A stretch of 64,000 nt of DNA from NCBI GenBank assembly GCA_035577265.1, contig DATLVR010000119.1, positions 68,436 to 132,435 of the forward strand, in the 5' to 3' direction. Shown in pieces: positions 11,116 to 63,389 of this stretch. Source of the stretch: Verrucomicrobiia bacterium. GTDB taxonomy: Bacteria; Verrucomicrobiota; Verrucomicrobiia; Limisphaerales; UBA11358. The notes beneath the pieces were generated by a model. It did no database searches, was not told the origin of the DNA, and saw only the letters and a list, made by a program, of their open reading frames with translations. The translations under genes and the position numbers were made by a program. How positions within the stretch are numbered: the first letter of the stretch is position 1; each line of letters opens with the position of its first letter.

Positions 11116-12459
11116 TTACGGTAGAATCACTCGATAAAACTTCGCCGTGCTCAGCGGCGAAGTGGTGTCAATAACGAATATCGGGCCAGCTCCGGCTGTG
11201 TTCGTCGAAAACGAGGTCCAAGGCCCGCTCACTGAGGGGGCAGACTGCGACACATACGTGGTGCCGTTGACGCCGTTAATTGTGATGACGGGATCCAGGG
11301 TAAATGAATCAGCTGACACTGAGGCTGATGTGCTTGTAGTATAGCTACGATCGTTCGGGCTAGCAGCAGCGTTGGTAGCCACCACGGAATAGATCCCAGT
11401 CTGGGCGGCGCTGAAATTTGCAATAGTTAGATTGGCTGTCGTTGCTCCGGAAACCCCGCCGCCGTTCGCGAGGGGCACGGAATTAAACATCCATTGATAA
11501 CCGGTTGCGGGCGAGGCAGCCGATGTTAAGTTGAGCGTGCTGCCTAACCCAACAACCGCATTTGAAGGGTTAAGGCTGAATACTGGCGTGGTGGGGCCAG
11601 CGGGTGGAAGTGCTGTGAGGACGGTGATGTTAGCCGCCGGATTATAGACCGCAGAGATTGTGCCATTGCCCTCGAAAGCGACGAGCTGATGATTTGTAAT
11701 CACATAATTCATCGCATTTACTCCCCCGAAAGTTATTGTTAATGCATTGTTTGTGATCACCACTTTGGAGTTGGCTCCGATGTCCATATAACCAAAGCTT
11801 CCGACCTGCTGAGGCGCGCCAAGTGTTTGGGCAGACCAATCACGCATGTAAACTGAACCGCCGTTGGTGACGTAACAATAGTTGGTGACGCCAGGGTTTC
11901 CATTCCAACCTATGCCAAATTCCCCACCTGGAACGTGAATCGTGCCGCCGTTAACGACTACCGTGCCTATTGTGTTGTTCTGCCCCACCCAAATATGTCC
12001 AGCACCAGTGAAGTCTGCACCCGGGTTAACAATCAAAGTCCCGGGCCCAGCCACAAAGCCTATTCCAGTCCAAGAGTCTCCAAAACCCGAAAAGCCCGCC
12101 TGAAGTTGACCATGGTCGATCTCCAGCACTCCGCCTCCTCCGAAGCCACACATAATCTGGCCGACCTGGGTGTCGTTGGTTACGACACAGATGACAGCGG
12201 CGCTGTCAAATGCGGCATTGTAAAAAGTGGACACTGCGTTTGTGTCAACAACGACAGGCACGACAAGGAGGCCCCAGTTGGCAGGGTCGTTCCAATAAGC
12301 GGCTTGGTTGCCGTGGACGTCAGTGAAAACGTTTGACGGGGACCAATGGTCGTCTTCTCGACTCGCGGCCATGGCATTGTATGCCAGCATCGGCCCGGCG
12401 AGCAGGCCGGTCAGAAGCAGGGATTTGAACATTCGGGAGGATTTTACCATTCTTTTCAT
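11116..12459 (-). CDS. Secreted protein with a beta-helix-like N-terminal module, an Ig-like domain and a C-terminal FYR module
   Basis: Signal peptide MFKSLLLTGLLAGPMLAYNAMA. The N-terminal ~230 aa is paralogous to the N-terminus of 13591..15774 (both start W(N/S)P..N...........W..GxxP). Ig-like stretch YQWMFNSVPLANGGGVSGATTANLTIANFSAAQTGIYSVVATN. Ends AKFYRVILP. Confidence 0.85.
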   Translation of the reverse strand: MKRMVKSSRMFKSLLLTGLLAGPMLAYNAMAASREDDHWSPSNVFTDVHGNQAAYWNDPANWGLLVVPVVVDTNAVSTFYNAAFDSAAVICVVTNDTQVGQIMCGFGGGGVLEIDHGQLQAGFSGFGDSWTGIGFVAGPGTLIVNPGADFTGAGHIWVGQNNTIGTVVVNGGTIHVPGGEFGIGWNGNPGVTNYCYVTNGGSVYMRDWSAQTLGAPQQVGSFGYMDIGANSKVVITNNALTITFGGVNAMNYVITNHQLVAFEGNGTISAVYNPAANITVLTALPPAGPTTPVFSLNPSNAVVGLGSTLNLTSAASPATGYQWMFNSVPLANGGGVSGATTANLTIANFSAAQTGIYSVVATNAAASPNDRSYTTSTSASVSADSFTLDPVITINGVNGTTYVSQSAPSVSGPWTSFSTNTAGAGPIFVIDTTSPLSTAKFYRVILP

Positions 12460-12609
12460 ATGTGGGTTTGTGTTGATGTTAATGATTTTTTTGCGGCATT
12501 TTTATGCCTCAACAGTTTTGGAACAATGTAAGAATAACTGAAAGGCGGCGCATCGGTATCCCCTCTTTCGGGGATGGTAAACTGATTGGAGCGGGTCTAC
12601 TCTGAAACC

Positions 12610-13590: not shown

Positions 13591-15774
13591 ATGAAAGAAC
13601 TGCGCAAGCTTTGTAAACTTGTCATGTGGGCTCTGCTTTGCCTTGGAATTTCCGTGAAAGCGCAACTCACGGCAACAACTTGGAATCCGGCTGGCAACCC
13701 CAGCCAGCCATCGGATAATTTATGGGCCACAGCTGGAAACTGGAACGGGGGCGTCGTCCCTGCACACGGGTATAAGGCCTATTTCAATGTCGGCGCCGCA
13801 CCGTGCCTCGTGAACAGTGCGGTTGGCGGTTGCCAGGTATCCATCGGTGATGGCGGATCGGGGTGCGTTCTCATTGTCACCAATGGTGGCAGCCTGTCTG
13901 CCGGAGACACCACGGCAGGCAATAATGACAATTATGCTTGGACGGCCATTGGCTATAGCAATACCGGTGAAATGGACATTGAGAACGGCGGCTCAGTAAC
14001 CTTCAACTATCACCTGTGGATTGGCCTGAATACCGGGGCAACTGGCACGTTCATCATGCGTGGCGGGACGGCGTCGGTTGCGGGCGCTTTTGGGTTGGGC
14101 TTTAGCGGCGGCACGGGCATCATGCACATCAACGGCGGCACATTGACTCTTTCCCAATGGGCTGCCAACTCGATTCAGGGCACCGGTTCTGTGCTGGACA
14201 TTGGAGGTGGAACGGTGGTTATTGCGGGCAATCAAATGGCCTCGGTGAACGGTTTTATCGCCAGTGGCAAAATCACCGGTTACGGTGGCACCGGCACCGT
14301 TGCGTGCAGTTACAACGGAACCGCCAATACCACCACAATCACCGCCACTAAAGGTAGCAGCGCCTCCAGCAACAGCGCTTATCTTTCCATCCAACTATCG
14401 GGGATCAATCTAACGCTTTGCTGGCCGACTTCTTCCGTCTACTATGGATTGCAGTCCACCACCAATCTCATCGCGCCGGCTGTCTGGAAATCCCTGACCA
14501 ACACTGTCATCACCGCCAACGGGACTAACGAGGTCATTTTACCTTTGTCGAGTCAGACAATTTTCTTCAGTCTGAATCATGGGGTTGATGCCACCACCAT
14601 GAATGGCAAATTGTTGATGGGCTATCAAGGCTGGTTCGCCTGTCCGAATGATGGTTCGGCGCCTGATCAATGGTGGCATTGGTTTCACAACCAGACGCCG
14701 ACGGCGGCCAACGTTAACACGGATTTTCTCCCGGACACATCCGAGTTCACCGCGAACGAGCTTTTTAACACGGGAATGACCTACTCGAATGGCAGTCCGG
14801 TTCAATTCTATTCGGACGCCGTGCAAAAAACTACCCTCCGCCATTTCCAATGGATGCAAGAGAATCAACTGGACGGCGTATTTCTACAACGTTTCCTGAC
14901 CGATCTTTCCAGTCCGCAATTTTATTCTTTCCGCAACCAGGTTACTGCCAATGTCCGTGCGGGAGCGGAAGCCTCCGGGCGGGTGTATGCCATCATGTAT
15001 GACGTCAGCGGACAGCCCGCCAACACCCTCATCAGCAACCTCACCAATGACTGGCTTTACCTGGTGAATACCATGCACATTACCAACAGCACACGGTATC
15101 TTTATCACAAAGGCAAACCCGTGGTGGCTCTCTGGGGCTTTGGCTTTAATGACGGGCGCCATCTGGCTTCGCCGCAGCAGGCGCAAACGGTGATCAATTG
15201 GTTCAAATCCCAAGGTGTCACCGTGATGGGCGGTGTGCCGACGTATTGGCGCACGCTGCAGAATGATTCGTATACCAATGCCGCGTGGACCCCCGTCTAT
15301 CTTTCGTTCGATGCCATAAGTCCGTGGGCGGTTGGCAGGTTTGGCAACAACGCGGGCGCAGACAGTTATACGGCGAACATCACCATACCGGATCTCGCCA
15401 CCTGCAAAACGAACGGAATTGATTATATGCCCGTGATTTTCCCCGGCTTTTCCTGGTATAATGAAAATGGCGGCCCACTCAACCAGATTCCACGGAATGG
15501 CGGCTCGTTCTATTGGAGACAGGTTTATGACGCTGTGCATGCGGGCTGTAACATGATTTACGGCGCGATGTTTGATGAGGTCAACGAAGGAACGGCCATG
15601 TATAAGCTTGTGCCAACGGCTGCCCAACTGCCTGCTCAAGGCCAATTCCTGTCGCTGGATGCTGATGGAGCAACTCTTAACAGCGACTGGTATTTGCGGC
15701 TGGCCAATCAGGCTGGCAAGATGTTACGCGGCGAAATTCCCTTGCAAACCACCATCCCCATCTCACCGCCGTGA
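13591..15774 (+). CDS. Secreted enzyme with a beta-helix-like N-terminal module, an internal copy of the W...FF(S/R)L module and an unassigned GYQGWF hydrolase-like domain
   Basis: Signal peptide MKELRKLCKLVMWALLCLGISVKA. Residues ~262-330 (LTLCWPTSSVYYGLQSTTNL...VWKSL...TIFFSLNHG) match the C-terminal module of the other enzymes. The C-terminal half (LLMGYQGWFACPNDGSAPDQWWHW ... ISPWAVGRF ... MFDEVNEGTAMYK) is paralogous to the N-terminal halves of 24786..27218 and 27220..30630. Confidence 0.9.
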   Translation: MKELRKLCKLVMWALLCLGISVKAQLTATTWNPAGNPSQPSDNLWATAGNWNGGVVPAHGYKAYFNVGAAPCLVNSAVGGCQVSIGDGGSGCVLIVTNGGSLSAGDTTAGNNDNYAWTAIGYSNTGEMDIENGGSVTFNYHLWIGLNTGATGTFIMRGGTASVAGAFGLGFSGGTGIMHINGGTLTLSQWAANSIQGTGSVLDIGGGTVVIAGNQMASVNGFIASGKITGYGGTGTVACSYNGTANTTTITATKGSSASSNSAYLSIQLSGINLTLCWPTSSVYYGLQSTTNLIAPAVWKSLTNTVITANGTNEVILPLSSQTIFFSLNHGVDATTMNGKLLMGYQGWFACPNDGSAPDQWWHWFHNQTPTAANVNTDFLPDTSEFTANELFNTGMTYSNGSPVQFYSDAVQKTTLRHFQWMQENQLDGVFLQRFLTDLSSPQFYSFRNQVTANVRAGAEASGRVYAIMYDVSGQPANTLISNLTNDWLYLVNTMHITNSTRYLYHKGKPVVALWGFGFNDGRHLASPQQAQTVINWFKSQGVTVMGGVPTYWRTLQNDSYTNAAWTPVYLSFDAISPWAVGRFGNNAGADSYTANITIPDLATCKTNGIDYMPVIFPGFSWYNENGGPLNQIPRNGGSFYWRQVYDAVHAGCNMIYGAMFDEVNEGTAMYKLVPTAAQLPAQGQFLSLDADGATLNSDWYLRLANQAGKMLRGEIPLQTTIPISPP

Positions 15775-16863: not shown

Positions 16864-17478
16864 AACTCGGATCTAAACTACATTTATAACTGATAGATTT
16901 TATCTTAAAACATTCTCCGGCAGCCAGCCACCCCTGGACGCAACCAGCGGCCAAGGCGGCGGTCACTGATGCCGGCAGCCTTGTGGGGGATTTGACGACG
17001 GTAATTTTTCATATGCTTCTTCGTTTCGGATGGGTCTTGAGCAGGATGAATTAAATTTAATCGCGGCGGCATCCCCTTTTTAGGGGAGGGTGCCTGTCAG
17101 CGGCATTCCCACCTTGAAAAACCAGCCAGATGGCTGGTTATAAACGCCGGAGCAAAGAATTTCATGGATGCTTTCATGTGTTAAGCCCGCAGGGGAATAA
17201 TCATCCCGGCGGCGGATCGGCTCAAAGGTTGCTGAATACTCCAGCACCATCGCAAACGCAAAACCAGTTTTCCCCGGCCGCCTTTGCCCTGGACAATCTC
17301 CCAACACAGATCGGACACCGGATTCCCATTTTATGCATGGTGGATCAGTCAGTCCCCGTTTTAGGGGAGTATCGGTCCGCGCTGCATTCTCATAGCGTTT
17401 TGCCTCGTCGCTCCGCGTTCAAGATGGTAGAAGATCGACGATGGCAAAAACCCATGCGCTGGCGCAACCTTGAATTCT

Positions 17479-19819: not shown

Positions 19820-21073
19820 TCACCGCTTCGTCGCTGCCGGGACGTTGGTGATTCCCCAAATCTCGCGGATGGTTTCCTCGGTGTTGAAGCCGTTGGGGCA
19901 CGCCGCGCTGCGCGTGTTGGCCCAATACCACTGCGGATCCGTGCGATTTCCCGGCCTGAGAACCCGGCTGCCCGGCATTTCCAGATGACCGTTCGGATCG
20001 GTTTTCCTCACCCAATCCCAGGCGTAATGCAGCCACTGGTTGCGTTTCGCCTCCGGCATCAGGGCGAACCAAGTGATTTCATCCCAACCCCAGATGAATG
20101 GCGACGAACTGGGTTTTCCAGGATTGTGACTGCCAAAATTATCGAACTCGACCACATACGGCAAATGGTCACACCCCCAACCGCTGGGAGTGATGCCGCC
20201 TTTGCTGCGTTGAAAAATCGAATCAGCATAACCGACTTGCAGCACTCCCTGATACGGCTGGTTCGTCACCGCCACGATGCGCAGCGGAAAAGAATGAAAA
20301 TCGAAAAGCAGCTTCCCCTGCTCCACATATCCACCGGTGGGCGTATGCGCATCGCAAATCAAAAGATGTCTGCGGGCATGTTGATGAGCGTAAGCACGCA
20401 CACGCTGCAGCATATCCAACCAGCCGGCGTGGCCCGGATCGTTGCCATCCATGAGCCCCACCTGCCCAAAATGGATGGCTTCGATTCCCGCATCAATGTA
20501 ACTGGTGGCAAGAAAATAAAACCACATGCGCGTTTCCAAACGGCTCATGTCCGGAACCGACGCGCCATTGCCCCAGTGATTCACAAAACGGCCATTGGCA
20601 TACAGCATGTCCTCGTATACAAAGTTGCGGTTCGTGACCGCCTGGCCGAATTCCAGAAACACCCGTTCGGGAATCGAAACCGTTGCGATGTCTTTGGTGA
20701 CAATTTCAAATGCCGCCGCCTGCAAAACAATGTCGGGATCGGCCTGATGCAGCGCTGCCGCATAAGGCGTGGCCATCTTCAGAAACCGGGCAAGATTGCT
20801 TTCGTGGCCCCAAAGCATCAGCGCCCGTCCGACAAATTTCGTCTTGGTGTCCAGAATCAGGCGCAGGTTGTCGCGCGGATCCACACCACGGGCGTCACGC
20901 GGCTGGGTCAAATCATCGTGCAACAATTCCGTAAACGAGATGGAACGGGACAGATAATTCTCCAACACCGGTCTGGAAATGACGGAATCAAAATGAAAAT
21001 CCTGCGCGATTGCAGGAACCGTCCCCGAAAAAAGCGTGCTGATCAGGATGCCAAGCAGACTGTAACTTTTCAT
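19820..21073 (-). CDS. Secreted hypothetical protein, last gene of the giant-enzyme operon
   Basis: Signal peptide MKSYSLLGILISTLFSGTVPAIA. The start lies 2 nt after the stop of 21076..24777. No family was recognised; alternating hydrophobic/polar blocks could fit a TIM-barrel-like fold, but this is untested. Confidence 0.8.
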   Translation of the reverse strand: MKSYSLLGILISTLFSGTVPAIAQDFHFDSVISRPVLENYLSRSISFTELLHDDLTQPRDARGVDPRDNLRLILDTKTKFVGRALMLWGHESNLARFLKMATPYAAALHQADPDIVLQAAAFEIVTKDIATVSIPERVFLEFGQAVTNRNFVYEDMLYANGRFVNHWGNGASVPDMSRLETRMWFYFLATSYIDAGIEAIHFGQVGLMDGNDPGHAGWLDMLQRVRAYAHQHARRHLLICDAHTPTGGYVEQGKLLFDFHSFPLRIVAVTNQPYQGVLQVGYADSIFQRSKGGITPSGWGCDHLPYVVEFDNFGSHNPGKPSSSPFIWGWDEITWFALMPEAKRNQWLHYAWDWVRKTDPNGHLEMPGSRVLRPGNRTDPQWYWANTRSAACPNGFNTEETIREIWGITNVPAATKR

Positions 21074-21075
21074 AT

Positions 21076-24000
21076 TTATGGATAAACCAACCGGAAAAAA
21101 GCACCACCTGTTGTCGGATCAATTAGATATGTCATTTGGTTCGTAGCCGCGGAACCAGGCAGCGTCACCCAATTTGTCCCCAGGCCGGCCCCCGGTGAGT
21201 TCGTCTGAATTTGTAACTGCCAGCCTGTGTGGTCCTGCGGCCAACTGAGTTGTATCTGGCCATTACTGACTCCAAAACCGAATTGAGGTGGGGTCGTTGA
21301 TACCGGTTGCGCAGCAACTGAAATAGAATTGGCGCTCTCGCCTACCGAGTTTATAGCAGACACGACAAAGTAATAAGTGATTCCATTCGTCAGCCCGGTA
21401 TTCGTGAAATTCAATGTTGTTAGATTTGTCGCGATGACGAGGTAGGTTCCGTTTGATATTGCAGCACGTTTTACATTGTAATTCGTGGCGTTACTGGAAG
21501 GATTCCAAGCCAAAACTACCCCCTCATCGCCGGCGATAGCTGTCAGTCCAGTCGGGGTAATGGCAAGCGGAGTCCCTAGCAGGCCTATTGCATAGTTCGT
21601 CTCAACATCGCCAGCCGTCAACACACCACTTTCAACGCGGGCGGATGCCACATAGCCCACAAATGGGTTGCCTCCGTTAACTGACGAGCCAACCCATAGT
21701 AGCGTTTGCGGAGTATTAAGGCTGCCTCCAACCGATCCATCCGGATGACCATCCTGATAAAGGCGCACGGTCGAACCATCAAACGTGCAAGCCAGATAGT
21801 GCCACCCAACCGTGGGCGGAGTGGACCATCCGACGTCCGGGCCAAAATTACCCGTGAAACCACCATAACCTGTGTTCAAATATGCCATTTCGCGAGCCTC
21901 ATGCGGGTTTGAACTTCCACCATCAACTCCATAACCCACAACGAAACTGCTTGCGGTGCCTGAGGTGGCATAAACCCAAGCCTCCACCGAGTATGGCGCA
22001 TTTCCAATAACCTCATTCGGCACCAGATTGCCTGATTTCACAGAATTGCCACTCACGCCGTTAACATAAACGGCTTTTATCAGACCAGACCCAAAGGCGA
22101 TGTTGGCCAAGTTCAGGTTGCCGCCGCCAAGCATGGAAAAATTTCCGACGCTATTGGCATTACTGGTCCGGTTCGTCCACACCTTGCTGCCAGTGGTCAG
22201 GTCCGCCGATTGGAGGTTTGCAATCAGGTTTCCTTCGAACCGCACCGCCAAATTGGTTCCAGGGGTAGCAGTGGCCTGCGTGGAACTGACACCCTGGCCC
22301 CAAAGGTTGACGGCCGAAACCACATAATAGTAGCTCGTGCCGTTTGTCAAACCAGTGTCGAGATAGCCCGGGCTGGTGATATTGGTCGCGATGGTGACAT
22401 AGAACCCGCCATTGGTGGTGGAGCGACCGATGTTGTAGCTGCCGGCACCGGAGGACGCAATCCAGTTCAAACTAACACGGGCGTTTCCAGGGGTGGCCGT
22501 CAGGCCCGTCGGCGCCGGGGGCGTGGCCCTAACCACATCATTGCTGCGAGAGGTGGGACTGACTGTTAACAGCGAAATGGCCCCATTGGTGTAGATGAGC
22601 CGAACCGTCGTGTTGCTTGCCGCGCATAACTTATAGTCAACGTTCCAGGTAGCGGGCCACGCCGGAAGAGGTCTAATTTCGCTTCCATTGCACTGCATTA
22701 ACATATACTGCAATCCCATCATAGCCGCGCCGCCGTTGTCCAGATCCGGCAAATAATCGTTATGTGATGTCCAAAAGGCGGGAAATCTGCACTGGCTGTC
22801 TTTCTGCGAAAAATTACTGATGACATCGGCCTGCGCGCTGCCGGTCAACCCGACCAGCGGCTCTTCAATGACATCCTGGGTCCAACAATTTTTATTATTT
22901 TGAACCACGCGGTTGTTGAAGGTGGCCAGACCAACATTGAAATTTGGCTTGCCGATCCCGTAAATCCGATAGGGAAATATGCAATAACATTCCGGGTTCT
23001 CCGAGTTGTGGGAAGCGCCGTAAGTCTGCGCGGGTATTACATAGGTGCCAGTGGCGTTCGTTGGCAATGGCGGGAGGGCGGCATGGCAATTGGTCCATTC
23101 ATTGATCAACGCCGGAGTGGTGAAATTGGTGGGCAAGGCCATGAGCTTTGGAATGTCGTTCATCAAACCCGAGATGTAATCCGTGGAGTTGGTGCAGTCC
23201 CAATACATTTCAATCGCATTGGCGGGGTAAAATTTAATTTTGCCATTCACCCGCGGCCAATGCTGGTCAAAAAAACGGATTGTCTGCGTCGCAAAGGGCA
23301 CAATATAGTTGGTGGCAAAGGCGCTGTCGCGCGTGTAATCGTAGTAGTCCAGCATCATGGCCAGCGTTTCCAGCGCACCCTGATAGTGATACCGGATGTA
23401 TTGATTGCCGGCGTTGGTGGCCGTGCTGCTGCCCCCCCAGTCAGTCAGCAGATACTGGCCAAAATAATTAAACGTTTCGGGAAAGAACGCGCCGCCGTGT
23501 CCATAATACTTGAGCGTTGCCGCTGTCTGAGAACCCATCATGTTGGTGTAACAATCAAACCACGGCTGCATCAGATCGAAGTCTCCCGAAGCCAGCAACG
23601 GCCAATAGAGATGACGGGTGTTTTGATGCCAATATCCCGGCCCCCATCTGCGGTAGTCACCATTTTGTCCGTTATAGTCAAATGTAAAGGTGCCGCCGTT
23701 GAACTTTATCGGATACTTTCCCCTGCCCTGACAGGCTTCCATAAAACGCTGTTCGAGATATCCACGTGTAACAGCAACGGCATTGGCATCGCCGCTGATA
23801 AAAATCCAACTCCGATTCCAAAACGCATCCCACCAGTTGAAGTGATTGGTCCTGGCCGTTTCGAGGTCCGTTGCATCCACCTGCGCGACCAGGTTGCTCA
23901 TCTGGTTCTGCCAGCCGGTCGCCGTGCCGGTTTGCGCGGTATAAGGATAAATGGACACCATGAAATGGGTGCCGGCTGCGGATTGCAAAGTGTAATTGCT

Positions 24001-24777
24001 CACCTTGCTCAAGTTGGTGGATTTAATGGTCGCGCCAAAAGTGCGGTTGATATACGGATCGGGAACGCTTGTCCAGAGACCGTTTAAATTCTCTCCGGCC
24101 AGAATCGTCTGATACAACGAAGTGGCATTGCGATGATACGAAACCAACCGGTCAGGCAACGACAAGACGGCATCCGCGGTTTCCGTCCAGCCATTGTTCA
24201 CGCCCCGCCAGCCGCCGGACGGCGGATCGTTGCCGTCGGTCGCCGTGTAAGGCGAACTCCGCCAGACTTCATTCGAACAAGTCATGGTGAACGACTGATC
24301 GCCAGTCGCCTCCACTCGAATCACCGGCTGGTTGGCATCAATCCAAACACGAAGATAAATCTGCGAACCGGGTGGTCCCGCGGCAACGTCAATCTCCCCG
24401 TGATAAAAATCCAGCGTCTGCTTAAAAGACGCGCCCAGCGCAAATGGATTTGGCGTGAAATGAATCCGGGTCCGGCCGATTTTCAACAGTCGCGTGCCTT
24501 CGCTCCAGCTATCCGACTTGCCGATATACATCATCAAATCGCCGCCGTTTTCCACCCAGACATTGGCGGTGACGTCGCCGTTACCGATGGGCATTGACCC
24601 TGGCGATCCATTGGTGCTGGGAGTAGTCCACACTTCATTGTAGTTGTTCAACTGAGATAGCACATCCGCCGGCAAACTGGCCGCGCGGACTTGTCCATTG
24701 CTGGCAAGAAGAAGACTGAACAACAAAATAAAAACCCGAAACGGCTTATCAGATTGCACTTTTTTGTTGTTACTCAT
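21076..24777 (-). CDS. Multidomain secreted enzyme: GH95-like/DUF5703-like catalytic region, FN3, LamG-like, FN3, C-terminal FFRLVYP module
   Basis: SMPIGNGDVTANVWVENGGDLMMYIGKSDSWSEG is paralogous to 17479..19767. FN3 units carry ...SYNIGRSTTNGGFYVTIA...GLTNGTSYYYVVSAVN. The concanavalin/LamG-like block contains YSVEAWVYAT...WHYLACTFDGSTVRLYQDG. Ends GGAFFRLVYP. Confidence 0.9.
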   Translation of the reverse strand: MSNNKKVQSDKPFRVFILLFSLLLASNGQVRAASLPADVLSQLNNYNEVWTTPSTNGSPGSMPIGNGDVTANVWVENGGDLMMYIGKSDSWSEGTRLLKIGRTRIHFTPNPFALGASFKQTLDFYHGEIDVAAGPPGSQIYLRVWIDANQPVIRVEATGDQSFTMTCSNEVWRSSPYTATDGNDPPSGGWRGVNNGWTETADAVLSLPDRLVSYHRNATSLYQTILAGENLNGLWTSVPDPYINRTFGATIKSTNLSKVSNYTLQSAAGTHFMVSIYPYTAQTGTATGWQNQMSNLVAQVDATDLETARTNHFNWWDAFWNRSWIFISGDANAVAVTRGYLEQRFMEACQGRGKYPIKFNGGTFTFDYNGQNGDYRRWGPGYWHQNTRHLYWPLLASGDFDLMQPWFDCYTNMMGSQTAATLKYYGHGGAFFPETFNYFGQYLLTDWGGSSTATNAGNQYIRYHYQGALETLAMMLDYYDYTRDSAFATNYIVPFATQTIRFFDQHWPRVNGKIKFYPANAIEMYWDCTNSTDYISGLMNDIPKLMALPTNFTTPALINEWTNCHAALPPLPTNATGTYVIPAQTYGASHNSENPECYCIFPYRIYGIGKPNFNVGLATFNNRVVQNNKNCWTQDVIEEPLVGLTGSAQADVISNFSQKDSQCRFPAFWTSHNDYLPDLDNGGAAMMGLQYMLMQCNGSEIRPLPAWPATWNVDYKLCAASNTTVRLIYTNGAISLLTVSPTSRSNDVVRATPPAPTGLTATPGNARVSLNWIASSGAGSYNIGRSTTNGGFYVTIATNITSPGYLDTGLTNGTSYYYVVSAVNLWGQGVSSTQATATPGTNLAVRFEGNLIANLQSADLTTGSKVWTNRTSNANSVGNFSMLGGGNLNLANIAFGSGLIKAVYVNGVSGNSVKSGNLVPNEVIGNAPYSVEAWVYATSGTASSFVVGYGVDGGSSNPHEAREMAYLNTGYGGFTGNFGPDVGWSTPPTVGWHYLACTFDGSTVRLYQDGHPDGSVGGSLNTPQTLLWVGSSVNGGNPFVGYVASARVESGVLTAGDVETNYAIGLLGTPLAITPTGLTAIAGDEGVVLAWNPSSNATNYNVKRAAISNGTYLVIATNLTTLNFTNTGLTNGITYYFVVSAINSVGESANSISVAAQPVSTTPPQFGFGVSNGQIQLSWPQDHTGWQLQIQTNSPGAGLGTNWVTLPGSAATNQMTYLIDPTTGGAFFRLVYP

Positions 24778-24785
24778 GGCTGGCT

Positions 24786-27218
24786 CTATGGATAGACCAA
24801 CCGGAAGAACACACTGCCATCGGTGGTGTTGATGGGCGCAGAGAACTGATTAGTCAGGTTTGAATTCGGCACGTTCACCCAGTTGGTGCCGATTCCGGCA
24901 TTCAACGAATTGGTTTGAATCTGCACACGCCAACCGAGGTGATCCACTGGCCAGCTAAATTGCATCAGGTTGCCGGCAGTCGTGAGACTGAGCTGGGGCA
25001 AAGCGGTGGACACGGTCTGCGCGCTGGCTTCAAGTGAATTCGGGCTTTCGCCAAACGAGTTCGTGGCCGTGACGACAAAATAATAAACCGTTCCGTTCGC
25101 CAGGCCGTTGTTGGTGTAAGCGAGACCGGCCACGTTGGGAGCGACGGTCGTGTAAGGCCCGTTGCTTACGGTTGCTCGCTTTACATTGTAGCCGGTTGCC
25201 CCGGAATTGGGAGGCCATGACACGCGAATTTGGCTCGACGACAGCGTCGTCGCCGTTAAACCAGCGGGCGCGGACGGTGGGAATGGCGGGAAGAGGCGAT
25301 TCGCCGGAATGATTTCTTTGGGCTGACTCGGACTTGACCAGGACAAACCGGCCGCCGCACCGCCCCCGTCTTCGTAGTAATCCATCTGGATGGAATATCG
25401 GGTGCCGGCGGCCAGCGCAATCGTCCCGCTGTTCTCGGTGGGCGAATGCCCCGTCCAATTGTTGACGAGTTGGACGCCGTTGACCCACAACCTCACGCCA
25501 TCATCAGATAACGTGTAAAATGTGTAAGTCTGGGAGAAAAGCGGCTGCACCTGGCCGGTCCAGCGCACGGAAAAGGTATCCACGCCGATGGAGGGGGCGG
25601 GCGAACCAGTGCCCCAATCAAAGTTCACGCCTGAATCCACGCGCGATAAAACAAATCCGGTCAGGTCAATGTTGTTGTAGTAATCACCCTTCAGTCCGAG
25701 CAGAACCGGCGCGGCCAAAACTTCCGCAGAGTCCGTGCTTTCTCCCAGCGAATTTACTGCTCTGACGGTGTAATAATAAATCGTGTCGTTGACCAATCCA
25801 GTATCGATATAGCTCACGAAACCCACATTCGTCGCGACGGTCGTGTAAGGTCCTCCGCTCACCGTTGCGCGCCGGACAGTATAGCTGGCGGCCTGCGCCG
25901 TTGCCGCCCACGTCAACCGGACTTGCGAGTTCCCGGATTCGGCCGCCAGATTCGTCGGCGCAGAGGGAATGATCGGTGGCAGCACAAACGGAGTGGTATG
26001 CGTCGCGTGAAAGGGAACCTGACCTTTGAACATGCGGCCTGCATCGCGCATTAATCGCAAATAAAAATCCGCGGAACAGTGGACTCCATCGGCATCCCAG
26101 TTGATAAACGATGACCCCAGCGGAGTCATGGACGCATCCTCGGCGGTGGGAATAAGCTGGGTCGCTTCATTAAATTCGTCATACATGGAAACATAAAGGC
26201 CATGAGATCCGATCTGCATCATGTTGACGACTTGATGCCACAGGTAGTCTCCATGCATCCGGCCGCCGGTCGGCGGGGTTTGCCAGCTGTGACCGGGCAC
26301 AATACAGGGCTGATAATCCAGGCCGTGGCTGTTGCAATAGGTCATGTCTCCCTGGTTCACACTGGAACGATACGAATCCGATCCGGCGGCATCGTTGAAT
26401 CTTCCGACCATCCACGGCGAGATCATGTGGAAGTTGGTGTAAACGTTCAGGAAATTCGTTTTGGAATCATTGATTGAATTGCGCCACCAGGTCGGCACGC
26501 CGCCAATCACGTAACAGCCCTGATTCTTGAACCAGTTGATCACCTCCGTGCAGGTGGCCTCATCTCCGGGCCGGTCCGTGAAGCCCATTCCCCAGATGCA
26601 CACGACTGGCTTGCCATTTTGCATCGCGTAGGCGGGGGAATTGGTGATGTTAATCTGGGCAATCATGTAGTTGGTCCAATCCGTCTTGATCTGCGTGGCG
26701 AAACTGTTCCAGCCGCTGATGTCATACATGATGTAGAACTTGCGGTTATAGGTCTCCGCCGCGCTTCGCACTTTGAGCGTCATTCCATTGCGAGTCGGGC
26801 CTTCGCCGCCAAACGGGTTGAAGCGTTGCAAGGCCGCCGTATCAATTTCGTTTTCCTGCATCCAGCGAAAATGCGTGTCCACCACCTGCTGATCATACGA
26901 AGAGAACAGGGTTGCGGGCTGTCCGTTGCCAAGATTCGTGAACGCCGTTTGAAAGCCCCTGGCATACTGCCGCATGTCGGGCCAGCCATAGATGCTGATA
27001 TTGTTCGACGACGGCGTTTGCGAGTTGGGCGTCCAATGCCACCAGGCGTTGATCGGCGATCCATCCGACGTGCAGGCGAACCAACCTTGATAGCCTACGC
27101 TTACCTTGCCAACGACGTCGCCGACGGGGCTGGCCGCAAACAACGAATTGCCGATGCACAAGAAGAGGCCGATGACAGGGACCGCCAGTAACCGGGTGCT
27201 GAAGCGAATGGTTTTCAT
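24786..27218 (-). CDS. Multidomain secreted enzyme: GYQGWF hydrolase-like domain, FN3, PA14, FN3, C-terminal FFRLVYP module
   Basis: The start was reset to MKTIRFSTRLLAVPVIGLFLCIG (ATG at 27218, 1 nt after the upstream stop). VGYQGWFACTSDGSPINAWWHW ... ISPWMVGRF ... MYDEFNEATQ marks the hydrolase-like domain. The PA14-like block is GLKGDYYNNIDLTGFVLSRVDSGVNFDWG...FSVRWTGQ...YTFYTLSDDGVRLWVNG. Ends GSVFFRLVYP. Confidence 0.9.
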   Translation of the reverse strand: MKTIRFSTRLLAVPVIGLFLCIGNSLFAASPVGDVVGKVSVGYQGWFACTSDGSPINAWWHWTPNSQTPSSNNISIYGWPDMRQYARGFQTAFTNLGNGQPATLFSSYDQQVVDTHFRWMQENEIDTAALQRFNPFGGEGPTRNGMTLKVRSAAETYNRKFYIMYDISGWNSFATQIKTDWTNYMIAQINITNSPAYAMQNGKPVVCIWGMGFTDRPGDEATCTEVINWFKNQGCYVIGGVPTWWRNSINDSKTNFLNVYTNFHMISPWMVGRFNDAAGSDSYRSSVNQGDMTYCNSHGLDYQPCIVPGHSWQTPPTGGRMHGDYLWHQVVNMMQIGSHGLYVSMYDEFNEATQLIPTAEDASMTPLGSSFINWDADGVHCSADFYLRLMRDAGRMFKGQVPFHATHTTPFVLPPIIPSAPTNLAAESGNSQVRLTWAATAQAASYTVRRATVSGGPYTTVATNVGFVSYIDTGLVNDTIYYYTVRAVNSLGESTDSAEVLAAPVLLGLKGDYYNNIDLTGFVLSRVDSGVNFDWGTGSPAPSIGVDTFSVRWTGQVQPLFSQTYTFYTLSDDGVRLWVNGVQLVNNWTGHSPTENSGTIALAAGTRYSIQMDYYEDGGGAAAGLSWSSPSQPKEIIPANRLFPPFPPSAPAGLTATTLSSSQIRVSWPPNSGATGYNVKRATVSNGPYTTVAPNVAGLAYTNNGLANGTVYYFVVTATNSFGESPNSLEASAQTVSTALPQLSLTTAGNLMQFSWPVDHLGWRVQIQTNSLNAGIGTNWVNVPNSNLTNQFSAPINTTDGSVFFRLVYP

Positions 27219-27219
27219 T

Positions 27220-30200
27220 TCATGGATAAACGAGACGGAAGAACGCGCTGCCGTTGGCGGAATCAATTGGGACAAAGACCTGATTGGTAAGAGCCGAACC
27301 GGAGACGGTTACCCAATTCGTTCCAAGTCCGGCGGCAATGGAATTAGTCTGCACTTCGAGCCGCCAGCCAAGGTGATCCGTCGGCCAGTTGAATTGCATC
27401 GTGCCGCTGCTCATTCCAAAGCCAAGTTGAAGCGGAGCGGTGGAAACCGGACGCACGCTGGCTTCGACTGAATTGGTGCTTTCGCCAAACGAGTTCGTGG
27501 CCGTGACGACAAAGTAGTAAGCCGTTCCGTTCAGCAATCCGGTATTGGTGCAAGCAAGCCCAGTCAGGTTGGTGGCAACGACAGCATAAGCTCCATTTGA
27601 AATAGTGGAGCGCTTCAAATTATAGCCGGTCGCGCCCGAAGCCGCCGCCCAATTCAACACCGCCTGGCTGTCGCCAGCCGTGGCTGTCAAACCTGTCGGC
27701 GTGGCGGGAGGCACACCCACCAAGAAAGTGAACGCCAATTCGGACAGTTGAAGGTTGCTGGCATCGCCGTTGTTGGTCGTGATGTTCAGCCGGTAATATT
27801 CATAACCGATGGTGTTGCTGATGGGATACTGCTTGGTCAGGAAACGGGTGGCAAACGTTTCTCCCGTGCGTGTGTCCAGCGCGGTCCAGGTCGTTCCATC
27901 GTGCGAGCCTTGGAATTGCCAGCTCTTGGGATCGCGTCCGGGCACATCGTTGGCGCTGGATAAATCGTAGCGAACGACAATCTTTGCGATTCCTCTGAAG
28001 TAATACTGCAACCACGCCGTGGTGCCGGAAGCCAGCCACTTGGTGCCCGTCGAACCATCGAACGCCTTGGCCGCCGTTTCGCTGGGAGCGTTCTCTGAAC
28101 TGGCCGACGCAATGCCAACCGATGGCAGTCCTGAAACTTCCAGGGAGTTTGTGCTCCCCCCGGCCGCATTCGTCGCACTGACCACGTAGTAATAGGTCGT
28201 GTTATTGACCAATCCGGCATTGGTGTAAGTGGTCGTGGTCGGACTGGCGATGGTTGCGTAAGGTCCGCCGCTCACGGTGGCGCGCTTGACGTTATAGCTG
28301 GCCGCGCCACTGGAAGACCTCCAGCTTAAGGTCACCACGCCATCGCCCGACGTAGCGGTCAGCCCGACTGGAATGGTGGGTGGCGGTTGAGGTTGAGTCG
28401 TCGCGCTGGCTTGGATGCTGTTGGTGCTTGGGCCGCCCGAGTTCACGGCCAAGACCACATAGTAATAGGTCGTATTGGGAACCAACCCAGTATCCCAATA
28501 TCCAGTCGCCGCGATGCCCGTGGCGATGTTGGTGTAAGGCCCGCCGTCAACCGTCGCCCGCTTGACATTATAGCTCGTCGCCGCAGCCGGAGCCGTCCAG
28601 CTCAAACTAACCTCGGTGCTGGAGACCGGCGTGGCCGCGAGATCAGTCGGAACAAGCAGCGGGGCGGCATTCAGGGGCAGAATTTCCACCCCGCTGGATT
28701 TTGCATTATCCGATGCGCCATTGGCATATTGAATGACGATCTGTCCGCTGCCATTGGCCGCGATGGTGTATTCCTTGATGGTGGCCTTGTTCTTGGCTCC
28801 GGCATCGGCAAAAATGTCATAGTTCGCCAATACTTGAGTCCCATTGATGAAAACGTTGAAGCGGCGCACGCCGGCAGCATTGTAAAAGATTTCCGCGAAA
28901 TGCAGCCGCACCTTGTAGCTGGTTCCAGCAACCAGATTGGTAAAGGTGTAAGTGTTATTATTCCAGCGTTCGGTCTGATAGACCGCCTGGGGTGCCGGAT
29001 TGGTCACACCGCTCGTGTCAATGGCTGAAGAAGTTGAGCCGGCATTTCCGCCAGAAAAACAAGCGTCGGCCGTGAACGGGCTCGCCGCGCTGCCACCCGA
29101 GTTCACCGAATAAAAAGCCGCCGGCGTAACGCTGATTTGCGTCGAGTCCGGACCCTCTCCCAGCGAGTTCACCATGCTGATGACATAGTAATAGGTCGTG
29201 CCATTGACCAGCCCGGCGTCAATGTAGCCGATCGCTCCCACATTCGTGGCGATGGTCGTGTAAGCTCCGCCGCTTACGACGGCCCGCTTGATATTGTAAC
29301 TGGTCGCGCCAGCAGACGCCGTCCAGCTCAAAGCAACCTGCGCGTTGCCACCATTGGCAGTCAAACCCTTCGGGGCGGCCGGGGCGGCGACCGGCAACAT
29401 GGGAAGAGTTGGCCGGGTTGCGGTCAGGGCCATTTGGCCTTTAAACATCCGGCCACCATCGCCGGTGAGTCTCAGGTAGTAGTCCGACGAGCAGGGCGTA
29501 CCATCTTGATCCAGTGTAAAATAAAGAGCCGGGGTTCCGATCGGACTCATAGAGGCGTTTTCCGCCGTGCAGGCGATCTGGTTTCCCTCGTTGAACTCAT
29601 CATACATGGAAATGTAAATCCCCTGGCAACCAGCCCGTTGCATGTTGTAGAACTGCCGCCACATGAAATTCCCATGCGCCCGCTGTCCCGTGTCGCCGGG
29701 CAAGACACACGGCTGATAATCAATCCCATTGGCGTTGCAATACGCTTGATCCGGCAGGTTCACGTTGTTGTAAAAATTATCCACATCGCCGGTGTTTCCA
29801 ATTCTGCCAACCATCCACGGCGAAATCATATTAAGCGCACTATATGCGCTCAGAAAATTCGTCCTGGAATCGCCATCCTCGGTCCGCCAATGAGTCGGCA
29901 CCCCGCCGATGACGTAGCAGCCCTGACCCTTGAACCAGTTGATCACTTCGCCGCAGGTAATCGCGTCCCAGGGATGATTGCCGTCGTTGAAGCCAAAGCC
30001 CCAGATGCACACAACCGGCTTGCCGTTTTGCGTCGCGTATGCCGGCGACACGGTCAGGGCTGACATTTTATTGGTCCAGTCAGCCTTGATTTCCGCCTGC
30101 ATGGTCGTCCAGCCGCTGACGTCATACATGATGTAAAATTTCCGGCCGTAAGTTTCCGCAGCCTTCCTGACTTTTATCGCCATCACATCACGAGTCGGAC

Positions 30201-30630
30201 CTTCACCTCCAGTTGGATTGAAACGTTGCAGGGCGGCGGTATCAATCCCGTTCTCCGCCATCCACCGGAAATGCGTGTCCACCGTCTGCTGGTCGTAGGA
30301 GGAAAACAGCGTGGCCGGCTGGCCATTGCCAAGATTGGTGAAACCGGTTTGATAGCCTTTGACGAACTGTCGCATGTCGGGCCAGCAGTGGATGCTGTTT
30401 GAGAGCGTGATGGGCGTGGGCGGCTGGGTTCCGCCGCTGTAATGCCACCAAGTGCCGATGGGAGCGCCATCGCCGGTGCACGCAAACCACCCCTGATAAC
30501 CCACGGTCACCTTGCCCACAACGTCGCCCACCGGACTTCCTCCCCGTGCCGGCTGGCCAAAACACGCCAGGGCAACAGCACCCAGAAATAAAATTAACCG
30601 GTGGGAATAATTGTTACGCATAGACTTCAT
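27220..30630 (-). CDS. Multidomain secreted enzyme: GYQGWF hydrolase-like domain, FN3, malectin-like, 2x FN3, F5/8 type C, FN3, C-terminal FFRLVYP module
   Basis: VGYQGWFACTGDGAPIGTWWHY ... ISPWMVGRI ... MYDEFNEGNQ marks the hydrolase-like domain. The malectin-like block is FYSVNSGGSAASPFTADACFSGGNAG...VYQTERW...YKVRLHFAEIFY...RRFNVFINGTQV. The discoidin-like block is AAKAFDGSTGTKWLAS. Ends GSAFFRLVYP. Confidence 0.9.
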   Translation of the reverse strand: MKSMRNNYSHRLILFLGAVALACFGQPARGGSPVGDVVGKVTVGYQGWFACTGDGAPIGTWWHYSGGTQPPTPITLSNSIHCWPDMRQFVKGYQTGFTNLGNGQPATLFSSYDQQTVDTHFRWMAENGIDTAALQRFNPTGGEGPTRDVMAIKVRKAAETYGRKFYIMYDVSGWTTMQAEIKADWTNKMSALTVSPAYATQNGKPVVCIWGFGFNDGNHPWDAITCGEVINWFKGQGCYVIGGVPTHWRTEDGDSRTNFLSAYSALNMISPWMVGRIGNTGDVDNFYNNVNLPDQAYCNANGIDYQPCVLPGDTGQRAHGNFMWRQFYNMQRAGCQGIYISMYDEFNEGNQIACTAENASMSPIGTPALYFTLDQDGTPCSSDYYLRLTGDGGRMFKGQMALTATRPTLPMLPVAAPAAPKGLTANGGNAQVALSWTASAGATSYNIKRAVVSGGAYTTIATNVGAIGYIDAGLVNGTTYYYVISMVNSLGEGPDSTQISVTPAAFYSVNSGGSAASPFTADACFSGGNAGSTSSAIDTSGVTNPAPQAVYQTERWNNNTYTFTNLVAGTSYKVRLHFAEIFYNAAGVRRFNVFINGTQVLANYDIFADAGAKNKATIKEYTIAANGSGQIVIQYANGASDNAKSSGVEILPLNAAPLLVPTDLAATPVSSTEVSLSWTAPAAATSYNVKRATVDGGPYTNIATGIAATGYWDTGLVPNTTYYYVVLAVNSGGPSTNSIQASATTQPQPPPTIPVGLTATSGDGVVTLSWRSSSGAASYNVKRATVSGGPYATIASPTTTTYTNAGLVNNTTYYYVVSATNAAGGSTNSLEVSGLPSVGIASASSENAPSETAAKAFDGSTGTKWLASGTTAWLQYYFRGIAKIVVRYDLSSANDVPGRDPKSWQFQGSHDGTTWTALDTRTGETFATRFLTKQYPISNTIGYEYYRLNITTNNGDASNLQLSELAFTFLVGVPPATPTGLTATAGDSQAVLNWAAASGATGYNLKRSTISNGAYAVVATNLTGLACTNTGLLNGTAYYFVVTATNSFGESTNSVEASVRPVSTAPLQLGFGMSSGTMQFNWPTDHLGWRLEVQTNSIAAGLGTNWVTVSGSALTNQVFVPIDSANGSAFFRLVYP

Positions 30631-30658
30631 TTAATTGCACAAAATTAATTAACGCTTA

Positions 30659-33600
30659 TTAATTCCCGGGGTATACCAGCCGGAAAAAGACACTGCCAGA
30701 GGTTGGATTAACCGGGAACGTCATCCGGTTGGTGTTGGTTGATGCGGGAATGGTCATCCAATTGGTTCCAAGCCCCTCATTCAACAAATTTGTCTGCACC
30801 TGCAAACTCCAGCCCGTGCGATCCGCCGGCCAGTCCATCTGTATCTGCCCGTTACTGGTCGTGAAGTTGAGTGGTGGCGAGGTCGTGGATACGGGTCGCG
30901 CACTGGCTTGAATGGAAATCGGACTCTCGCCGTAGAGGTTCGTCGCCGTGACGACATAATAATACAATGTTCCATTGGTCAGACTGCTGTCCGAGTAACT
31001 GAGATATGCCAGATTGGTGGCGATGGTCGTGTAGGGCCCGCCGCTTAAAGTGGACCGTTTCAAGTTGTAGCCGGAGGCGCTCACACTGGCGGCCCATGAT
31101 AGATTGACCTGCCCGCCGACGGCAGTCCCGGTCAGGCCGGCTGGAGCCGGCGGCGATGTTCCGAAAACGTTGAACTCGTCAATGCTCCAAAAAGTTCCCG
31201 GGGCGCTGCCGGTCTGGAGGATCCGGATGTAACGCGCCGACTGCGGAACAAACGTGATGGTGGTGATGCTCGAAGAACCGGTTCCGGTTGCAATGGAGCC
31301 ACCCCAAGTAACACCGTCGTTGGAGACATAAACCTGATAGCCGCGCGGATAATCATTGGCCGAATTGACATAATTCAAAACGATTTTGTTAAACGCATTG
31401 GCCGAACCCAGGTCCACTTGAAACCACTGACCATTGACTTGCGATGTGCCCGTGGACCAGCGCGTGGTGAGATTGCCGTCCAGTGCATTGCCCGGCGCAT
31501 CGCTTCCCGTGGTGCTGGAACTGGCCACCCACATCGTCCGGCTCAGCGTGCCGGGCATGGCGTAAACCTGCGATGAATTGACACTCTCGCCGGCCAGGTT
31601 CTGGGCGGAGACCACATAGTAATAGGTCGTGCCGTTGACCAGTCCGGTGTCAGTGTAGCCAGAGCTTGGCACATTGGTGGCGATGACCGTGTAAGATCCG
31701 CCGCTGGTCGTGGAACGTTTGACGTTGTAACTGGTCGCGCCGACGGAAGCGATCCAGCTTAAGGTGGTCTGGGCATTGCCCGCGGTCGCGACCGGGTTGG
31801 CGGGCGTCGCGGGCGGCACGCCGCTGACAAATCCGACGATGAAGGATTCGGCGGTCCCAATCGTGGTGCTCTGAGCGATCAACGGATTGTCCCCGCCATT
31901 GGGCGCGGTGACATATTTGCCATCGTTCATGGCGCGAATGCCAATATTGCCGCCACCGGCATCAAATTCGGTAAACGTCTCCCAACTGCCGACGCCAGTC
32001 CGGTTGGCGATCAGCGGGCTGGCACCGTTGTTTTCCGCGCAGACATACTGGGTGTTGACCAGAGCAAGCAAGCCGATGTTGCCGCCACCCGCATCCACCA
32101 CCTGAAATTGCTCTGGCGTGCCGGCCGAGACGCTTGAAGCAATCAATGAATCGGCGCCGCCGTTGGGTGCCGTGACATATTCGCCATTGATCAGGGATTT
32201 CAAGGAATAGGTGTTACCAACGATCAATTGATGTGAAAGCGTTGGTGGCGCGGTAAAGAAACCGAAGAATTGGACGTTGAATAAAACTCCGCCACCGCCA
32301 GTGTAAACCAGATAAACCGCATGCGTTCCACTCGCACCGGTGATATTGCAATACGCATTCAAGTAGGTTTGTCCGCCGCCGGTTCCTGGAACCACGCAGG
32401 TTCCGACCAATGTTCCCACTGGACTGTCGAGCCGGATTTCAATATTGCCACCGGAACCGACGCCGGCCACCCGGGCGACAAAGGTATTTGCGCCCGTCAG
32501 ATTGATATTGTTGTAAGCCGACCAATCGCCTGCTTCGAGGCTGGTGATGTCCTGCCCGCCTTCGGCGCATCGCTCAATCACCACGCCCGACATGGTGTTG
32601 TAATTTGCCGCCGCCGTTGGGAAAGTTATGGCATAGCCAACGGCGCTGTTGGTAAAGGCCACGCGTCCGACGTTGAGTCCGGTCACGGAATTGGAATTGA
32701 TGATGGCATTTCCCGTGACACCCGTCCCCAAACTGCCGCCCCCGACCATGATGCCATCCTGGCCGGGGTGGATGATCGTGTTGTATTGAAAAACATTGTT
32801 CGTGCCGGTTGTGAATCCCACCGCGCTGAAGAGTGAATCCGTGATGATGTTCGAAGCGCAATAGGTATTCGCGACCGTGCCGACGCTTTGCCCATCGCCG
32901 CCATTGCCGATCATCATGGCGGGCTGTTGTTGCAGATAACCATTGCCACCACAGCGCAAGACGACATTTCCCAGAACCGTCGCGGAAATCAGATCGGAAC
33001 CGTTCACGCCGAACTTGCCCACGCCCAACCCGACGTAACGCGCCGTGTCATGCAGATAATTATTGGTGACTGTCTGATTGATGCCGCCGTAGATTGCCAT
33101 GTTCTTGCCACCCCACGCCCCGATCGCCGTGTTGTTGATATAAGCGATGTTGCTCATCATCGTGTAGTAAGTGGCGGTCGATCCATTCACGTTGTAATTA
33201 ACGGAATTGATGGCCATGGCGTCATCACCGGTGCCCCGGACGAAATTGTTGGAATAGGTCAGGTTCATCCCAATGCCGGAACTGCCCTCCACGTTATTGA
33301 AGTTGCCACCGTCCGACCACACACTCAGCACGCGGCAATTTTGCGCCGTGCCGCCGACACCGGAACACCAGAAGGCGGAAGTCACATGCTGGATCCAGAC
33401 ATTATCTACGAGCCAATTGTTGCCGCTGAAATTGACCGCCCCGTTATTGTTGTTGCCCGCCCGGCTGGAAGAATTGCAGTCCAAAGCAACTCCCCGCAAT
33501 GTGGAAGAGGTGGTCGTGATGATATTATTCACGCCCTGTGAATTGTTGTTCGGTGTGACGCGATACAGCGTGCTATACCATGGCCCGGCGCCCTCAATTT

Positions 33601-49132: not shown

Positions 49133-49169
49133 TTGCGGTTAATTGCGGTTCCGGTGTGGATCGTCCGCG

Positions 49170-63357: not shown

Positions 63358-63389
63358 ACTACCATATTTTTCCTAGTTACTTGAATATT

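Follow-up and report, generated by a model that had tools for sequence, protein, structure and literature searches.

A C-terminal beta-sandwich domain family on secreted Verrucomicrobiota proteins and its possible role in export or surface retention

The type A C-terminal domain (CTD) of Bacteroidota's type IX secretion system (T9SS) (Por_Secre_tail, PF18962/TIGR04183) is a folded beta-sandwich of about 70-100 residues that lies at the extreme C-terminus of Sec-dependent proteins and has no transmembrane segment. It is often found on very large multidomain carbohydrate-active enzymes (CAZymes), proteases and adhesins, with several carriers per genome whose genes are often adjacent, and the T9SS is not known to occur outside the Bacteroidota-Fibrobacterota-Chlorobiota group. 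Two other C-terminal elements are relevant for comparison. PEP-CTERM, the exosortase tag of many secreted Verrucomicrobia proteins, is a motif of about 25 residues that precedes a transmembrane helix and a basic tail. The type I dockerin of Firmicutes, about 70 residues long, has a helical fold that is duplicated and binds Ca, and it pairs with a dedicated cohesin; it is usually C-terminal, is carried by many CAZymes, and sets where the enzyme ends up. Here we describe a module of about 70 residues that recurs on seven proteins encoded in 64,000 nucleotides of DNA from a Verrucomicrobiia bacterium (contig DATLVR010000119.1 of assembly GCA_035577265.1, positions 68,436 to 132,435 of the forward strand; referred to below as the window), a metagenomic contig with 56% GC. 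An earlier note on this DNA, made from its letters alone, had proposed that the module may be a sorting or anchoring tag, with a structural beta-sandwich as the alternative.

The module agrees with the T9SS CTD in its position at the end of the protein, its predicted beta-sandwich fold and the predicted signal peptides of its carriers, as well as in the kind of proteins that carry it, the presence of several carriers per genome, the adjacency of their genes and the lack of a transmembrane segment. It differs in having no sequence or profile similarity to the CTD, in having generic FN3 domains as its nearest solved folds, in its occurrence in Verrucomicrobiota, and in being found also internally and in tandem arrays. 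What is new here is the sequence family and the phylum, for a C-terminal beta-sandwich on secreted multidomain proteins of a known kind.

The copies in the window, designated A to G after the proteins that carry them, were analyzed with two hidden Markov models (HMMs) that contained no window sequence, a broad HMM and a tandem-copy HMM, which were run against the six-frame translation of the window. Copies D (21079..21294), E (24789..25004), F (27223..27438) and G (30662..30883), all on the minus strand, were matched by the outside HMM with E-values of 1.6e-34, 5e-32, 1.9e-34 and 3.8e-32, respectively; as a group they scored about 4e-32 to 2e-35 with the broad HMM and 3e-10 to 2.1e-7 with the tandem-copy HMM. 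Copies D, E and F are the last 72 residues of their proteins, which end in GGAFFRLVYP, GSVFFRLVYP and GSAFFRLVYP followed by the stop codon, and copy G is the last 74 residues, made up of the module and a two-residue GN tail (protein end GSVFFRLVYPGN, with FFRLVYPGN before the stop). Copy A (2994..3209, +) is divergent and terminal, ends in AIRFYRTVTP and aligns cleanly with the broad family (E 9e-5 with the broad and 6.9e-7 with the tandem-copy HMM). Copy C (14362..14583, +; E 8.8e-11 and 6.9e-17) is internal, covering residues ~262-334 of protein C and containing QTIFFSLNH. Copy B (11119..11334, -; E 0.45 and 0.01) is terminal and ends in TAKFYRVILP; its match is limited to the last ~52 residues with the 'LxWP' strand missing, and it is a shortened, marginal member. 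On the basis of these E-values, module homology is upheld for six of the seven copies, and no eighth copy was found in the six-frame translation with the outside HMMs. The seven stretches listed in the earlier note were all present in the correct frame, position 21076 being the first base of a stop codon. The long consensus that the note had assigned to all of them (WP.DH.GW.LQ.QTN...G.GTNW...FFRLVYP) holds for copies D to G only, whereas A, B and C are ~20% identical to D.

Copies D to G are 49-63% identical to each other over 72 residues. Their DNA has a nucleotide identity of 55-64%, and the same codon is used at 34-47% of the identical residues; because nucleotide identity is low and the codons for identical residues mostly differ, the conservation of these copies at the protein level is kept by selection. 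The four copies are thus paralogues of old origin on which purifying selection acts. Their synonymous sites are scrambled, which rules out a recent duplication or gene conversion as the source of their likeness.

The module is absent from the curated libraries. None of the seven copies matched a Pfam or NCBIfam family, even at E ≤ 10, and scans of the full carriers and of the tandem-array proteins placed no family over the module. A profile search of all PDB sequences left the module unmatched, with matches only to the upstream fn3 part, and a full-text literature search found no description of it. The statement of the earlier note that this is not a named family is borne out by the Pfam, NCBIfam and PDB-sequence negatives. 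The two libraries, which we take to include the T9SS CTD models PF18962, TIGR04183 and TIGR04131, gave no match to these profiles for the seven copies (E ≤ 10) or for the full carriers, and a T9SS CTD was therefore not borne out at the level of sequence.

When 1.84 billion cluster representatives were scanned exhaustively with HMMER, 5,423 of them matched the family at E ≤ 1e-3 and 1,834 at E ≤ 1e-10. Among the best 150 representatives, the last module ended no more than 5 residues from the protein end in 147, with FFRLVYP, FYRLVYP, FYRLIYP and FYRMVYP as the commonest final heptads; among the three exceptions, P0114 appears to be due to a frameshift. The position was also read from 819 kb of DNA by inspecting the stop codons of the best 80 of 279 loci, which were taken from one genome per GTDB species with patterns derived from copies D to G. 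These loci contained 97 copies in 97 open reading frames (ORFs), and for the 96 copies with a stop codon in view, 80 lay directly at the stop, 9, 5 and 1 lay one, two and three residues before it, and 1 was internal. A broader HMM added 11 more divergent copies (with ends such as FYRVQVQ, FFRIRTQ, FFRLEE and FYRVVR), 10 of them at the very end. Because the rule holds in DNA checked for stop codons and in divergent copies, neither the choice of the FFRLVYP subfamily nor gene calling accounts for it. The C-terminal bias that the earlier note had seen in a handful of proteins thus extends to 147/150, 95/96 and 10/11 cases, far beyond what its reader could know. A generic Ig/FN3 family of Pfam with no positional bias, which the note had named as the result that would speak against a tag, is not what was observed.

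Nearly all of the best 80 loci are from metagenome-assembled genomes (MAGs) labelled Verrucomicrobiota, Verrucomicrobiia, Verrucomicrobia subdivision 3, Pedosphaera or Limisphaerales, and about a dozen are from MAGs with other labels (labels taken as given). The documented members of the family are Verrucomicrobiota, with the D-G type in subdivision 3 (Pedosphaera/Limisphaerales). A word-indexed search with the broad alignment returned short unnamed fragments only. Two orphan frames of ~91 residues (L076:6436-6708 and L023:9784-10056) consist of the module only, with no carrier domain, no clear ATG and AT-rich upstream DNA. They are conserved between two related MAGs and could be remnants or free cassettes.

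An AlphaFold2 model based on a 110-sequence alignment (pLDDT 89.7, pTM 0.76) predicted a compact beta-sandwich with five main strands, and the model from a separate 7-sequence alignment was similar (pLDDT 83). When the two models were compared with the PDB by Foldseek, FN3 domains were the top matches, weakly (E 0.012-0.05, TM 0.5-0.55), and no T9SS CTD structure was among the top 50. The predicted likeness to FN3 (PF00041) lies in the topology of the beta-sandwich and in two residues, a Trp buried in the 'LxW' strand and an aromatic one in the strand after it. An alignment by hhalign between the module and the fn3 domains of the same proteins placed strands A-C in register, with a probability of only 3%. 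The differences are that the module has no Pfam fn3 match, while E-values down to 1e-29 were obtained for the true fn3 domains in these proteins and the Pfam matches on proteins D to G stop upstream of the module; that the module is the shorter of the two, its model having ~5-6 strands; and that it has its own terminal F[FY]R[LIV]xxP strand. In addition, we know of no extreme C-terminal bias for fn3 linker domains. Because the libraries were negative and the Foldseek matches to FN3 were weak, the module is regarded as a distinct sequence family with a predicted FN3-like fold, that is, as an uncurated domain family of ~70 residues that models as an FN3-like beta-sandwich. The alternative offered by the earlier note, a structural beta-sandwich, agrees with this predicted fold and with the internal and tandem copies, which keep the FFRL strand.

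To characterize the proteins that carry the module, the complete carriers at the 80 loci were annotated. The 46 carriers match 46 different Pfam families, among them GH28 (16 carriers), fn3 (10), Laminin_G_3 (8) and PATR (5), and also CBM6, F5/8C, Ig, CatAgl, PL4, GH95, RicinB, GH31, GH78, cadherin and pectinesterase; elsewhere, giant subtilase and P-domain proteins also terminate in the module. A crude hydrophobicity rule assigned signal-peptide-like N-termini to 64 of the 71 complete carriers, 63 of which have a preceding basic residue. The carriers are thus otherwise unrelated secreted proteins, as the earlier note had held from the window. Its statement that all carriers there have signal peptides stands for proteins B to G, whose N-termini are signal-peptide-like; the ORF of protein A leaves the left edge of the window. 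Only 2 of the 64 signal peptides were lipobox-like, and a lipoprotein anchor was ruled out.

A C-terminal hydrophobic helix was found in none of the 71 carriers, as judged by the highest 18-residue Kyte-Doolittle mean within the last 40 residues (maximum 1.42, average 0.70). Like PEP-CTERM, the module is C-terminal on many secreted Verrucomicrobia proteins and occurs in the same genomes; unlike PEP-CTERM, it is predicted to be a soluble folded domain with no hydrophobic helix, and the carriers have no PEP-CTERM match. The comparison with PEP-CTERM and LPXTG tags made in the earlier note fails on these two points, the missing helix and the missing motif.

The module is found with and without fn3 neighbors. 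Of 87 copies, 48 have an fn3 domain directly upstream and 31 have none; the latter come after beta-helix, Laminin_G or Ig regions, to which a conserved 'N(P)TNI' entry strand connects them. Because fn3 is absent from so many copies, the module is an independent, mobile unit. It also replaces other C-terminal elements. In protein P0001, a series of seven GloVer 'choice-of-anchor' repeats (TIGR03803, E 3.9e-58) gives way to eight modules; 'choice-of-anchor' is an NCBIfam name for families whose members bear different C-terminal sorting signals in different lineages. PATR and TIGR02601 matches were present in 5 of the 46 carriers, and these proteins terminate in the 70-residue module, not in an autotransporter barrel, which was absent among the 25 most frequent Pfam families (of 46) and the 18 listed NCBIfam families of the carriers. 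In GloVer and PATR proteins, the module occupies the usual position of a sorting signal or anchor.

Taken together, these data lead us to propose, tentatively and with somewhat less than even confidence, that the module may be an FN3-like C-terminal domain for passage across the outer membrane or for retention on the cell surface, as an analogue of the T9SS CTD and not a member of its family. The module is fused as a unit to the 3′ end of genes for unrelated proteins with Sec signals, among them glycoside hydrolases, lyases and esterases with carbohydrate-binding modules (CBMs), subtilases, and adhesin-like proteins with PATR or GloVer repeats, and the polypeptide nearly always stops 0-3 residues past the last strand, F[FY]R[LIV]xxP. 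In this proposal the carrier would be exported by Sec and would then fold in the periplasm, where the terminal domain may be recognized as a folded unit. This recognition would allow the protein to cross the outer membrane or to stay on the surface, held there for instance by a glycan or protein that the domain binds. Internal and tandem copies may use the same fold as a stalk or for avidity, with the terminal copy being functionally constrained. Of the tag proposed in the earlier note, the unnamed family, the unrelated secreted carriers and the C-terminal bias are observed, and the sorting or anchoring role itself is what we infer from them.

Several observations weigh against this proposal. 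Internal copies (in protein C, L022 and L079) and tandem arrays of up to eight copies exist with the FFRL strand kept; we know of no internal or tandem use of T9SS CTDs, and structural and binding domains do occur internally and in tandem. No partner gene is conserved within ±6 kb of the carriers at the 80 loci, and the genomes that have the module already have PEP-CTERM-tagged proteins. The D-G subfamily has many polar and aromatic positions that do not vary (W, D, H, W, Q, T, N, N, W), and these would also suit a small lectin or CBM. Finally, a C-terminal bias can arise from the mode in which cassettes are acquired at 3′ ends.

The tandem arrays were examined in this regard. Two to eight tandem copies were present in 10 of the 150 best proteins, with the LSWP, Y.LQ, TNL, W and F[FY]R[LI] positions retained in the internal copies. 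Because the F[FY]R[LI] strand is kept in internal and tandem copies, it is part of the fold and not a linear signal. In all seven tandem-array proteins examined, the terminal copy was the most divergent, with mean identities of 47-79% among internal copies and 21-50% between internal and terminal copies. The terminal copies of P0012 and P0080 come from another subfamily than the internal ones and are only ~21-22% identical to the internal copies, which are on average 65% and 79% identical among themselves, respectively. A divergent last copy fits a specialized terminal copy. However, repeats at array edges are often the most divergent for purely mutational reasons, and the divergence is therefore weak evidence.

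The partner search was performed by clustering all neighbors within ±6 kb of the carriers at the 80 loci. The commonest neighbors were prepilin-like proteins with an N_methyl domain (19 of 81 loci), pectinesterase/esterase, untagged GH28, and a histidine kinase with a response regulator; a TPR protein, GH43 and a small PEP-CTERM protein were also frequent. N_methyl is the commonest neighbor family outside the CAZymes, but many loci are syntenic and there is no genomic background rate for comparison, and for these reasons no enrichment is claimed. None of the T9SS machinery (PorK/L/M/N, SprA/Sov, PorU, PorV) was found within ±6 kb at the 80 loci or among the 17 ORFs of the left 38 kb of the window, which the library annotation covered. 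A PEP-CTERM protein of ~297 residues (E 1.5e-7) adjoins GH28 carriers of the module at L038:1552-2442 (+) and at 7 related loci. With this protein beside the carriers, exosortase-type sorting appears to coexist with the module in the same genomes.

The alternative with the most in its favor is that the module is an ordinary accessory beta-sandwich with no sorting role, either a spacer ('X module') or a small lectin-like or CBM-like binding domain, which would be terminal only because cassettes join the 3′ ends of genes and nothing need follow them. We regard this as doubtful, with an appreciable probability of about one in three. An FN3-like fold, the frequency of the fn3 companion (48/87), the retention of all core motifs in tandem and internal copies, and the empty search for a partner gene nearby are all as a spacer or lectin would predict, and the conserved Trp, His, Asp, Gln and Asn resemble sugar-binding sites. 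The module also lies upstream of the putative catalytic domain in protein C and in the 728-residue protein of L022, whose internal copy is set in the same architecture. These points must be weighed against the position of the module, which is terminal in about 97-99% of ~250 independent cases on more than 40 unrelated architectures, with a tail of no more than 3 residues at the stop-checked loci; to our knowledge, such strictness is much beyond what is expected of bacterial fn3 domains and CBMs. It also takes the anchor position in GloVer and PATR proteins. Furthermore, the substrates of the carriers (pectin, alpha-1,3-glucan, fucosides and proteins) are chemically unrelated, which makes a shared substrate-binding role unlikely. 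For the same reason, if there were a common ligand, the surface of the cell itself would be the more plausible candidate, and its binding would once more amount to anchoring.

A more specific form of the export and retention proposal is that the module tags the cargo of an undescribed pathway by which Verrucomicrobiota export proteins across the outer membrane or attach them to the surface, a functional analogue of the T9SS that evolved independently in the Planctomycetes-Verrucomicrobia-Chlamydiae (PVC) group. We consider this rather unlikely, at about a quarter of the total probability. If it were true, each genome would use the module on several, perhaps many, of its adhesins and enzymes for polysaccharide degradation, and the recognition partner would be discoverable by phylogenetic profiling with the module HMM.

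It was also considered that the module could mediate protein-protein assembly, by homotypic or strand-augmentation docking, into a cellulosome-like multi-enzyme complex at the surface. Like a dockerin, it is a C-terminal unit of ~70 residues on many CAZymes that are encoded side by side, four of them in one tight gene run, and P0001, P0002 and P0005, which consist mostly of tandem copies of the same fold, could be scaffolds. However, the same domain type would then be present on both 'enzyme' and 'scaffold', unlike in the dockerin-cohesin pair, the predicted fold is a beta-sandwich and not the helical dockerin fold, and no complementary partner family was seen among the neighbors at the loci. 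Such an assembly role is improbable. That the module is a divergent CTD of bacteria with a T9SS, which its deployment with a signal peptide and a C-terminal beta-sandwich of ~70 residues on multidomain CAZymes would allow, is very improbable indeed in view of the negative library and Foldseek comparisons, the tandem and internal copies, and the distribution of the T9SS as we know it.

The carriers of the window lie in a polysaccharide-utilization cluster. Four of them form a head-to-tail run on the minus strand (19820..34399) together with a secreted protein of 417 residues, in the order G, F, E, D and 417-residue protein, with gaps of 28, 1, 8 and 2 nt; the first four genes each close with the module. 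Protein G (30659..34399, -; 1246 residues) contains an alpha-1,3-glucanase domain (CatAgl_D1), CBM6, fn3 and F5_F8_type_C. Protein F (27220..30630, -; 1136 residues) has a putative catalytic domain without a named family, malectin, four fn3 domains and F5_F8_type_C, and protein E (ORF 24786..27275, -; likely ATG at 27218) has a domain of the same unnamed kind, PA14 and fn3. Protein D (21076..24777, -; 1233 residues) is GH95-like (DUF5703_N) with Laminin_G_3 and fn3, and an exact copy of it is present in ENA assembly ERZ27256706 (contig k141_201010, 139 kb). The 417-residue protein (19820-21073, -), the last gene of the run, begins 2 nt past the stop of D, has a signal-peptide-like N-terminus, and matched no Pfam family and no PDB sequence.

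The other three carriers lie to the left of this run. The ORF of protein A (3..3212, +) has its N-terminus outside the window and encodes MBG_2 repeats and Ig domains; within 93-3212, five MBG_2 (YGX-type) repeats (E 7e-44) and Ig-like domains precede the divergent module. Protein B (11116..12459, -; 447 residues) has an Ig_3 domain. In protein C (13591..15774, +; 727 residues), the module lies between a Gly/Thr-rich N-terminal region and a catalytic-like domain. This domain of ~400 residues ('GKV.VGYQGWFAC...'; 14590-15771, +) makes up the C-terminal half of protein C and is 41% and 59% identical to the N-terminal parts of E (25900-27218, -) and F (29281-30630, -), respectively. It had no Pfam or PDB-sequence match, nor an NCBIfam match on protein C, and is probably an uncurated catalytic domain of the glycoside-hydrolase-like kind. 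Genes with prepilin-type N-terminal methylation domains (N_methyl) lie on either side of protein C, at 12586-13485 (+) and 15940-16863 (-).

The surrounding genes encode GH92, GH3, a second GH95-like protein, GFO/IDH/MocA oxidoreductases, a 3-keto-disaccharide hydrolase and the two prepilin-type N_methyl proteins. The two DUF5703_N (GH95-like) genes are paralogues that lie close together on opposite strands (17470-19767, +, and 21076-24777, -), and Laminin_G_3, fn3 and the module are present only in the latter. The pair thus lends itself to a comparison of a tagged with an untagged enzyme. In the right-hand part of the window (38000-64000), the HMM scan found no module copies; this part holds large minus-strand ORFs (46463-52607 and others), and the ORF 63381-64000 leaves the right edge.

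In soil and peat, Verrucomicrobiota are considered to be important degraders of polysaccharides, and we know of no account of how their very large CAZymes pass across or onto the outer membrane. A module that is present on thousands of proteins, has a near-absolute rule that it must be last, and is missing from Pfam and NCBIfam is a concrete handle on the question of how these enzymes are exported or retained. It yields an HMM for the annotation of secretomes, a candidate tag for reporter fusions, and a query for co-occurrence with partner machinery. Even if it is merely a binding domain, the module deserves a family entry, as ~70 terminal residues of its carriers now go unannotated.

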